A stretch of 10,395 nt of DNA from Candidatus Heimdallarchaeota archaeon (lineage in GTDB: Archaea > Asgardarchaeota > Wukongarchaeia > Wukongarchaeales > JBHIFL01), in NCBI GenBank assembly GCA_046761065.1, contig JBHIFL010000116.1, positions 1 to 10,395 on the forward strand, read 5' to 3'. Made by a program: the position numbers and the translations under genes. Shown here piece after piece: positions 5,160 through 6,743 of the stretch (positions within the stretch are counted from its first letter, which is position 1; each line of letters starts with the position of its first letter). The notes beneath the pieces were generated by a model. It searched no databases and was not told the origin of the DNA. It was given only the letters and a program-made list of their open reading frames with translations.

Positions 5160-6743
5160 TTGCTGTTGAAATGGTCGAATGCTTATAGAAAACAATGCCC
5201 AAAAAAAAGGAATACTAAACAAAAAAATACTATCTCAATCTTAGTTTTTCTGTTAGTTTTATTAATATTCATGCCTCCTAAACGAAATTTGTGGATCAAT
5301 AAAAGGCAATTCTGGTTTAATGAAAGTATGCAGTCAGGAGATGTAAAGGCTGCAGAACTTTTTCTTAAGATTCCAAAAGCAAATTTAGTCGGGAGCTATT
5401 ACGACCGTGGAGTTGACATCGATGGAGATAATAAATACGACTATTTAGCTATTGAAATTACATTAGATATAATAGATCTAGGGACATACCAAGTACGGAT
5501 TGAAAACCTCATAGATCCGACATCCCAGATCATCCATATCTCAAATGAAACAATTTCAACTCTCTCAAGTGGCCTCCAAAACATCACAGTGTGGCTTCGA
5601 ACGACTATGATGTTTATATCAGGGCTTGATGGACCATACACGCTCTTGTATGTGGAATTAACGGATACCAGTACGTATACTAAATTGGATTATGCGAGAC
5701 AACCCTACACTACCTGCTCCGCCTATCAATATACCGATTTTGATTCCCCGGGAGCAAGGTTGACAGGTGCCTACTATGACAAAGGCCTAGACACGGATGG
5801 AGATGGCACTTACAATTATTTGGTTATTATAACAACACTGAATGTGAGCGAAGCGGGAAATTATGATGTGGTTATCGATTTGCACACGAGAAGCGGCAGC
5901 CATCTGGTTCAAAACGACACTTACGGATACTTGACAGTGGGCCTTCAGAATGTGACTCTCTGGCTAAATGGTGCCGCTATATATAAGGCAGCGAGTGATG
6001 GACCTTATCAACTTGATGACGTAGCGATCTATGACGAACTCGACTATTATCATGACTATTATGACTATAATTTTCTTGACTGGGAAAGGCAGGCATATGT
6101 AACGGGCTATTACTCCTTCACCGACTTTGAAAGGGATGATATTGAGGTTAATCCTCCCCAAAATACCTCTTATGAGAGTCGGTGGATCCATTTCTTTAAA
6201 AATTTAAGAGGAAACAACTTAATAGTTCTTATAGCAAGTTTAGTTATGATTATATTGGTAAGTATAACTAGCTATGTAATGCTGCAGAACTATCTGAATA
6301 AAAACCATCGAAATAGGATGGTAGAGTCAAAAATACAAAATAATCGGAAAGGAATACAATCAATTAAGAGTGAAGGAACGAAATCACATGCAAGAAACTT
6401 TCCAACGCTTGCAAGGAATGAGTTTCCATCTATCATTGGAACACCTAGCTTCCTGCAAGAGAAATTCAAGAAACTTAATGGAAACATGATAATGATCCTC
6501 TTTATTTTAATCGAACACCATCCAACACCTTTAACCCATTCAGAACTAGTTGACCACTCAAATTTAGTAAAATCAACCCTGACATATTCCCTCACACGGC
6601 TTGAACACTTTGGATACATCTATCGCCGACCCCGGAAAGAAGATTTTCGTTTCATTGAGGTAGGGTTGACACAGCAAGGCATGGCACTAGTGACGGAATT
6701 ACGTCAGCGAATTGAGACCACTTTCATGAATGATCAAGGTTGA
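5160..6743 (+). CDS. Membrane-spanning one-component transcriptional regulator: TM, two extracellular repeats, TM, MarR-type winged HTH
   Basis: 527 aa. TM1 ISILVFLLVLLIFM follows a Lys/Arg-rich N-terminus. Two repeats of about 125 aa. TM2 LIVLIASLVMIILVSITSYVML. The C-terminal LTHSELVDHSNLVKSTLTYSLTRLEHFGYIYRRPRKEDFRFIEVGLTQQG matches the MarR signature (KSTLT..L.RLE..G.I.R....D.R...V.LT..G). TTG start preceded by GAGGAAGAT. Confidence 0.85.
   Translation: MLLKWSNAYRKQCPKKRNTKQKNTISILVFLLVLLIFMPPKRNLWINKRQFWFNESMQSGDVKAAELFLKIPKANLVGSYYDRGVDIDGDNKYDYLAIEITLDIIDLGTYQVRIENLIDPTSQIIHISNETISTLSSGLQNITVWLRTTMMFISGLDGPYTLLYVELTDTSTYTKLDYARQPYTTCSAYQYTDFDSPGARLTGAYYDKGLDTDGDGTYNYLVIITTLNVSEAGNYDVVIDLHTRSGSHLVQNDTYGYLTVGLQNVTLWLNGAAIYKAASDGPYQLDDVAIYDELDYYHDYYDYNFLDWERQAYVTGYYSFTDFERDDIEVNPPQNTSYESRWIHFFKNLRGNNLIVLIASLVMIILVSITSYVMLQNYLNKNHRNRMVESKIQNNRKGIQSIKSEGTKSHARNFPTLARNEFPSIIGTPSFLQEKFKKLNGNMIMILFILIEHHPTPLTHSELVDHSNLVKSTLTYSLTRLEHFGYIYRRPRKEDFRFIEVGLTQQGMALVTELRQRIETTFMNDQG
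5370..6131 (+). repeat. Two tandem extracellular beta-rich domains (5370-5744 and 5745-6131) with DxDGD putative Ca2+-binding loops
   Basis: R1: ANLVGSYYDRGVDIDGDNKYDYL...SGLQNITVWL...DGPYTL...RQPYTTCSAYQYTDFD. R2: ARLTGAYYDKGLDTDGDGTYNYL...VGLQNVTLWL...DGPYQL...RQAYVTGYYSFTDFE. Confidence 0.85.

Follow-up and report, generated by a model that had tools for sequence, protein, structure and literature searches.

A very probable membrane-tethered MarR-type regulator with two Ig-like repeats beside ASST-like genes in an Asgard archaeon

The DNA analyzed here (the window) comprises 10,395 nucleotides and represents the whole of contig C116 of a Candidatus Heimdallarchaeota assembly of 4.42 Mb (234 contigs, 91% complete). 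The class of the host is represented by only three genomes in the collection searched. The sequencing runs containing the contig are hydrothermal vent metagenomes, and no RNA run containing it was found among the runs listed. At the center of the window lies a gene for a 527-residue protein that is very probably a membrane-tethered DNA-binding regulator. It is flanked by four ASST-like genes, whose products carry export signals, are membrane-anchored, and fall into two subtypes. The features of the locus are as follows.

1..1680, minus strand: gene of an ASST-like surface protein, with an ORF reaching the contig end
1716..3155, minus strand: gene of an ASST-like surface protein with a Heimdall-CTERM anchor
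3330..4739, minus strand: divergent gene of an ASST-like surface protein (Pfam ASST), the most likely target
5106..5122, no strand: conserved inverted repeat GAAAAT-N5-ATTTTC, 38 to 54 bases 5′ of the regulator start, a candidate operator and/or promoter
5160..6743, plus strand: whole gene of the membrane-tethered regulator, TTG start, 527 aa
5160..5273, plus strand: basic n-region (residues 1 to 24; 8 K/R, no D/E) and hydrophobic segment (25 to 38), a signal anchor or signal peptide
5370..5747, plus strand: repeat 1 (71 to 196), an Ig-like β-sandwich with the invariant sequons N129 and N141 and a Dx[DN]xDG-type loop at 5415-5441
5748..6137, plus strand: repeat 2 (197 to 326), an Ig-like β-sandwich with the invariant sequons N228, N252, and N264 and a Dx[DN]xDG-type loop at 5790-5816
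6030..6080, plus strand: Tyr/Asp-rich loop insertion in repeat 2 (291 to 307), a candidate ligand or modification site
6180..6287, plus strand: juxtamembrane amphipathic helix (341 to 349; R341, W342, and F345 invariant) and TM helix (353 to 376)
6288..6449, plus strand: basic cytoplasmic linker (377 to 430), variable in length and sequence, with a 12-residue indel
6450..6740, plus strand: MarR-type winged helix (431 to 522), with a half-length α5 at its end and no α6
6852..9848, plus strand: gene of an ASST-like surface protein with an Ig/PKD stalk, directly downstream of the regulator

The regulator gene is real and conserved, and the first-pass annotation had described it correctly. The order along the chain (basic N terminus, hydrophobic anchor, two Ig-like DxDGD repeats, TM helix, linker, and MarR-type wHTH) confirmed the parts listed there, including a basic linker that had been put at about 55 aa and measures 54 aa, with 10 K/R versus 3 D/E. 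Hydropathy analysis placed the hydrophobic stretches at residues 25 to 38 and about 353 to 376, the latter with a peak of 2.63 at 355 to 373 and with a TM counterpart in all homologues. The first stretch is just 14 residues long and fits both a signal anchor and a cleaved signal. In the orthologues, the same basic and hydrophobic start was recovered once the reading frame was extended 5′ of the later start chosen by the gene callers. A Pfam search detected no kinase or receiver domain in the chain. Full-length AlphaFold modeling with 10 sequences reached a pLDDT of 44.5 and was used for rough secondary structure only.

Nine homologues with 55 to 76% identity, obtained from ENA, NCBI, and JGI samples, show the same order of parts, one of them ending before the wHTH; those with 73 to 74% identity are labeled "Candidatus Hodarchaeota archaeon" or "Candidatus Heimdallarchaeota archaeon" at NCBI. 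For four orthologues, the dN/dS values were 0.15 for the wHTH, 0.16 for repeat 1, 0.20 for repeat 2, and 0.37 to 0.45 for the remaining parts, with 0.42 to 0.45 for the TM helix and the linker (linker, 0.45). Mean identity was 0.78 in the ectodomain, 0.81 in the wHTH, 0.59 in the TM helix, and 0.57 in the linker. As dN/dS is low in the wHTH and the repeats and the fusion is kept in the homologues, the fusion is real and under selection. The possibility of an assembly chimera, raised at the outset, is ruled out by the nine homologues with the same fusion, by purifying selection, and by 3 runs, all from one study that may be the source study, in each of which one contig spans the whole gene. The joining of two genes by read-through is likewise ruled out, as there is no stop and a single frame.

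Among 400 genomes of the phylum, the fusion was found in this genome only; elsewhere in this set the repeats occur in proteins of ~430 to 1900 aa and the closest wHTH domains in soluble proteins of ~150 aa. We infer that the gene originated by fusion of a surface-protein stalk module with a soluble MarR. Pattern scans of the genome and of metagenome contigs revealed no further loci, and when we looked, with limited sensitivity, for this wHTH joined to other ectodomains or for a close soluble relative, only this family and its broken copies were recovered. Ten of the twelve other candidate single-pass proteins of the genome were scanned, and all ten lack an HTH tail. Copies of the regulator gene that carry frameshifts or are incomplete were observed at L001 3312-4930, L002 16667-17038, and L067 1-1493, so that the gene is dispensable in copies. 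The pairs of split ectodomain and TM-MarR frames in L001 and L067, considered as a natural two-gene form, were rejected because they represent such frameshifted copies.

The first-pass annotation had proposed the order of a type-I receptor, with the repeats and the wHTH on opposite sides of the membrane, and three indirect lines of evidence support this topology. First, the N terminus carries the eight K/R residues listed above. Second, sequons are frequent between the two hydrophobic stretches (69 of 173 Asn residues, versus 11 of 83 after the TM helix), and five N-glycosylation sequons within the repeats are invariant in 10 of 10 sequences, which places the repeats outside. Third, 98 of the 162 other repeat-bearing proteins examined possess an N-terminal hydrophobic stretch, and most repeat-bearing proteins with a later TM segment have only a short tail at the end. 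It follows that the repeats are predicted to lie outside and the wHTH inside, a prediction that holds for a cleaved first stretch as well as for one kept as an anchor. A ToxR-type topology was rejected, as the wHTH is C-terminal and of the MarR type.

The two repeats are 39% identical (BLAST E value, 5e-26), with DxDGD motifs at residues 86 and 211. Structure prediction with an 83-sequence alignment yielded tandem Ig-like β-sandwiches (pLDDT, 94.7; pTM, 0.84), and this model was submitted to the Foldseek comparison that the first-pass annotation had suggested. The best fold match was the Legionella DUF4785 protein 4kh9 (Foldseek E value, 4.6e-7; VIA Z 11.2, rmsd 12.0, 195 aligned), with which Ig domains of GH2 enzymes tie within 1 Z unit; an Ig fold in common shows no function. 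In the case of the Pfam model PF20943 (DUF4785_3rd), the query scored 18.9 to 21.8 bits versus a cutoff of 24.5, relatives reached E values down to 6e-16, and 33 of 83 family segments matched. Among the matches listed by the fold searches, none was clearly the ectodomain of a receptor or regulator, a result that excludes nothing, and a PDB sequence search with the repeat profile gave no match.

An acidic Dx[DN]x[DN] motif is present in 901 of 1,023 repeats of the family and forms a loop between the first two strands in the model; in repeat 1 of the query, N replaces the last G of the D-x-[DN]-x-[DN]-G motif. This loop resembles the calcium loop of the Dx[DN]xDG type. As it is a family trait and fits such a loop, it is read as structural rather than as a sensing site, and both repeats of the ectodomain are probably stiffened by Ca2+ and N-glycosylated. 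The family of this repeat comprises 4,663 clusters (at 50%) and is a common stalk module with no known ligand. The ~122-aa DxDGD Ig repeat (P0012-P0173; L006-L033) has no Pfam model of its own, and dozens of copies occur in one protein of 4,169 aa.

The Tyr/Asp-rich loop at residues 291 to 307 stands out within repeat 2, with a mean identity of 0.89 versus 0.78 for the whole repeat. The span of this loop is 58 residues versus a mode of 50, about 6 to 8 residues longer than usual, and a span of 58 is reached by 4 of 148 other repeats. Low pLDDT values at 296 to 301 indicate that it is poorly ordered in the model. At least six Tyr residues in the same region were found in 31 of 1,023 repeats. 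If the ectodomain contacts a ligand or partner, this loop is the foremost candidate site.

The C-terminal domain was assigned to MarR by Pfam (33.1 bits versus a cutoff of 24.6) and by alignment of the PDB MarR structure 9vg2 to residues 432 to 522 (E value, 6e-6). Its recognition helix (470 to 483) has an identity of 0.95 and is the best-conserved 17-residue window of the protein, and the wing motif D-x-R and the L-T-x-x-G motif, with which α5 begins, are kept (D495, R497, L503). No match to a GerE or SusR DNA-binding model or to PF24034 (DUF7343) was obtained in the query at E values up to 0.1. In soluble MarRs, the helices α1, α5, and α6 build the dimer domain and the ligand pocket. In the regulator family, only 17 to 23 residues follow the L-T-x-x-G motif, versus about 45 to 49 in soluble Asgard MarRs, and 5 residues extend beyond the 9vg2 alignment in the query versus 29 in 9vg2 itself. 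Thus α6 and half of α5 are missing, and α1 is not conserved relative to soluble MarRs. The wHTH has lost the C-terminal dimerization helix of soluble MarRs, a feature newly seen here.

As the dimer helices are cut short, the membrane part would have to bring about pairing or assist it. The missing helix thereby lends indirect support to dimerization at the membrane, which the first-pass annotation had considered. A homodimer prediction for residues 70 to 527 with Ca scored 0.00 and provides no evidence in either direction. Sensing of phenols inside the cell together with sensing outside had also been suggested, and the inside part of this idea is weakened, because the usual MarR pocket lies in the shortened dimer domain. 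A dual sensor whose MarR part still binds phenols while the ectodomain reads an outside signal could appeal to the intact MarR core, to phenols being ASST products, and to NCBIfam matches that include phenolic-sensing MarRs, all of them far under their cutoffs; with the pocket-forming domain truncated and α1 not conserved with soluble MarRs, we consider such a sensor very improbable.

The regions between ectodomain and wHTH bear on the question of how a signal would reach the DNA. In analogy to the logic of Notch and SREBP, the ectodomain could be shed and an S2P-type cut could free the linker-wHTH fragment by regulated intramembrane proteolysis to act on DNA. A single TM helix preceded by a conserved juxtamembrane amphipathic helix and a variable stalk (327 to 340) that could be cut are in line with such a pathway, as are M50 (S2P) proteases encoded in the genome; matches to M50 were found in all 14 control genomes, so that their presence says little. 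However, the annotation of the 9 loci shows no protease gene, the TM identity is only 0.59, and a freed wHTH without α6 would be expected to pair poorly. Because of this poor dimer, loss of binding would be a more likely outcome of release than gain. Release by proteolysis therefore appears unlikely to us, and we favor, with some reserve, a regulator that works in the anchored state.

The inverted repeat at 5106..5122 is the best-conserved upstream block and precedes all 10 gene copies for which upstream DNA is available, its inner four pairs being intact in 10 of 10. In L003, the sixth pair shows a compensatory change from G-C to T-A, and in L048 two changes occurred in the spacer with the arms unchanged. 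Among 2,410 upstream regions of the genome, it is the sole match of 12 out of 12. We think that the regulator probably binds this palindrome. The palindrome overlaps a BRE/TATA-like sequence at the expected distance, and a BRE/TATA reading alone could explain its conservation. A sigma-70 promoter scan stayed at chance level, the model not being suited to archaea. Within 200 bases of the ASST starts no palindrome was detected, the scores of 7 to 10 of 12 corresponding to background, and the genome shows no enrichment of the shorter pattern AAAAT-N5-ATTTT. Since the palindrome is found at the gene's own promoter region and not at the ASST starts, autoregulation is better supported than a wide regulon.

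That the sole clear palindrome sits at the gene's own promoter, and that repeats of this kind serve as stalk modules in general, would also suit a protein with a structural role, which tethers the DNA of the cluster or the chromosome to the membrane or regulates only its own gene, with passive Ig repeats and no outside signal. Such a role is improbable in our judgment, since the ectodomain is conserved like the wHTH (0.78 versus 0.81) and contains a conserved family-specific loop, and since a stalk here would have no adhesive or catalytic domain to hold at its far end.

The link between the regulator and ASST genes drawn in the first-pass annotation proved to be real. An upstream divergent ASST-like gene is present at 9 of 9 loci with DNA (the window, L001-L004, L047-L049, and L068), and the orthologue of the 3330..4739 gene is the divergent neighbor in L003, L047, L048, L049, and L068. 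As the nine loci are close kin, this linkage does not represent nine independent events. The most distant locus, L003, also has a divergent ASST-like gene, with an ABC transporter downstream. Across the phylum, ASST-like genes were detected in 104 of the 400 genomes, and the genome studied here has about six. On the basis of this linkage, control of genes of the ASST cluster by the regulator seems likely.

The clusters are unstable, with shuffled gene order, duplication, inversion, and decay. In the window, 9867-10015 and 10116-10395 match interiors of ASST genes or other cluster DNA in L001 and L002 with about 73 to 86% identity and are probably gene remnants. In L003 (11538-16882), a branched-chain-amino-acid-type ABC transporter adjoins the regulator homologue, and an alkaline phosphatase gene lies further upstream. 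β-Propeller-like surface proteins with faint BNR/Sortilin-type matches, a signal, and a C-terminal TM helix travel with the cluster (L001 5059-6711 and 14869-16659, L002 11653-13305, L003 18699-20459, L004 4144-5889).

Motifs were read using the ASST catalytic residues given in PMC13426309. All four flanking ASST-like proteins show motifs matching the catalytic residues His252, Arg374, and His436 of Escherichia coli ASST, and two of the four also keep His356-x-Asn358. In the 1716-3155 and 3330-4739 proteins, P-N-D stands in place of the His356 equivalent, with the other catalytic motifs kept.

The presence of these enzymes beside a Tyr-rich receptor loop allows a further explanation, according to which the neighboring surface ASSTs would sulfate the loop tyrosines and thereby change receptor pairing, so that the cell would measure its supply of aryl-sulfate donor. 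The tyrosines are invariant, exposed, acid-flanked, and part of a family-specific insertion; bacterial ASTs accept Tyr-containing peptides (PMC13426309), and the neighbors retain the motif sets just described. Against this, Tyr-rich loops are ordinary binding sites that are seen in unrelated repeats, and the ASST activity of the neighbors is predicted from motifs. We therefore regard sulfation of the loop as quite improbable. The same low probability applies to covalent outside-in feedback, in which a receptor with dimerization moved from the MarR to the receptor part would be switched by sulfation from the very ASSTs it controls.

From the parts, topology, selection, and linkage, all obtained by computation, we infer DNA binding, sign of regulation, ligand, and signal transfer as follows. 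The protein would be, on balance, an anchored, dimer-dependent one-component regulator controlling itself and the neighboring surface-enzyme genes. Two copies would be paired through the membrane part, and the anchored pair would bind the palindrome in its own promoter region and repress by default. An outside signal, possibly read at the Tyr/Asp-rich loop of repeat 2, would alter pairing and hence DNA binding. As a guess at the ligand class, the most likely signal would be an aromatic compound, a sulfated compound, or a surface polymer on which the ASST or β-propeller neighbors act. The genes controlled would be that of the regulator itself and the divergent ASST-like gene or cluster.

The natural acceptors of most arylsulfotransferases are unknown (PMC13426309), and a dedicated receptor-regulator beside ASST-like enzymes offers a route to their signal and substrate. 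Because operator, target, and sensing loop all have candidates, the model is testable with purified domains. In the literature searched, which covered few subscription papers, we found no description of Ig repeats joined to a truncated MarR with ASST linkage and a candidate operator, and as a type-I archaeal receptor-transcription factor the protein is a compact example.

The layout as such is already known. ToxR and CadC carry an OmpR-type wHTH at the N terminus, in the cytoplasm before the TM helix; they are single-pass proteins with a winged helix like the query, but the order is opposite, as the wHTH of the query is C-terminal and of the MarR type. The DUF4785 C-terminal domain (PF20943; Legionella lpg0956, 4kh9) is the best fold match of the ectodomain, with the query under the Pfam cutoff and a function that is unknown, and we know of no TM-wHTH fusion for this domain.

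SusR of Bacteroides thetaiotaomicron and BguR of Formosa agariphila are membrane-spanning one-component regulators (PMC3878776; bioRxiv 10.64898/2026.01.10.698779). Both share with the query a signal, an outside sensor, one TM helix, a linker, and a C-terminal HTH without phosphorelay, and all three lie beside a cluster and have a motif between the genes; SusR and BguR control their clusters, whereas control by the query is proposed. The sensor of BguR consists of two β-propellers and Y_Y_Y, with GerE as output, whereas the query has two Ig-like repeats and MarR and gave no such Pfam match. SusR has an HTH of its own kind. Both are bacterial activators, whereas the query is archaeal, with a truncated MarR and ASST neighbors. 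As sensor and HTH differ, the query is not a member of the SusR/BguR group.

In archaea, 1,384 transmembrane transcription regulators (TTRs), proteins with a TM segment and a DNA-binding domain, have been predicted (PMC10269533), and the query, with a predicted TM helix and a DNA-binding domain, falls under this definition. The table of characterized TTRs of Demey et al. 2023 contains one archaeal case, ArnR, and the term "MarR" is absent from the main text of that paper (PMC10269533). The query shares the wHTH core, D-x-R, and L-T-x-x-G with soluble MarRs (PF01047; 9vg2, OhrR 1z91, and the ~150-aa Asgard proteins L027-L034) and, like a soluble MarR, has a candidate palindrome on its own promoter and a divergent neighbor. 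Unlike these proteins, it is membrane-tethered in addition to differing in α1, α5, and α6 as described above. The nearest profile was a soluble Asgard MarR group (HHalign 98%, 36% identity), compared with 91% and 23% for the tails of β-helix/DUF7343 receptors, and a tree of 29 wHTH domains (p-AU, 0.455) is compatible both with one origin shared with the other Asgard receptor tails and with two.

The closest parallels in layout come from Asgard archaea themselves. We examined 17 long frames with a wHTH that came from ten Asgard genomes; nine of them, in two genomes other than that of the query, encode ectodomain-TM-wHTH proteins. This search for the architecture, together with SusR, BguR, and the archaeal TTR predictions, shows that the rarity of the receptor-like order had been overstated. 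Six proteins of the genomes G067 and G072 (L050, L051, L053-L055, L057) consist of a β-helix ectodomain, one TM helix, and a conserved tail of ~190 aa that has a MarR-like wHTH at its end, with several such paralogues per genome. Three TM proteins of G067 (L058-L060) have DUF7343-type wHTH tails (27.5 to 34 bits), and another is present in the query's own genome (G000:C181:576-956). That genome also encodes a Ribophorin I-like membrane protein (L038, G000:C41:9878-11989; Pfam, 70 bits) and, as another receptor-like layout, a single-pass protein with Kelch repeats, 11 TSP3 repeats, and a cytoplasmic zinc ribbon (L037, G000:C24:12318-14771). The β-helix receptors agree with the query in the order of parts and in a chain that ends soon after α5; the other Asgard receptors, all uncharacterized, differ from it in their ectodomains and in tails that are 23 to 28% identical. 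The layout thus recurs in Asgard archaea, which suggests that these organisms arrived at single-pass receptors on several occasions, each time joining another kind of ectodomain to another kind of wHTH tail. Such repeated receptor building bears on receptor-type signaling before eukaryotes; we do not claim that these proteins are homologous to Notch or SREBP.
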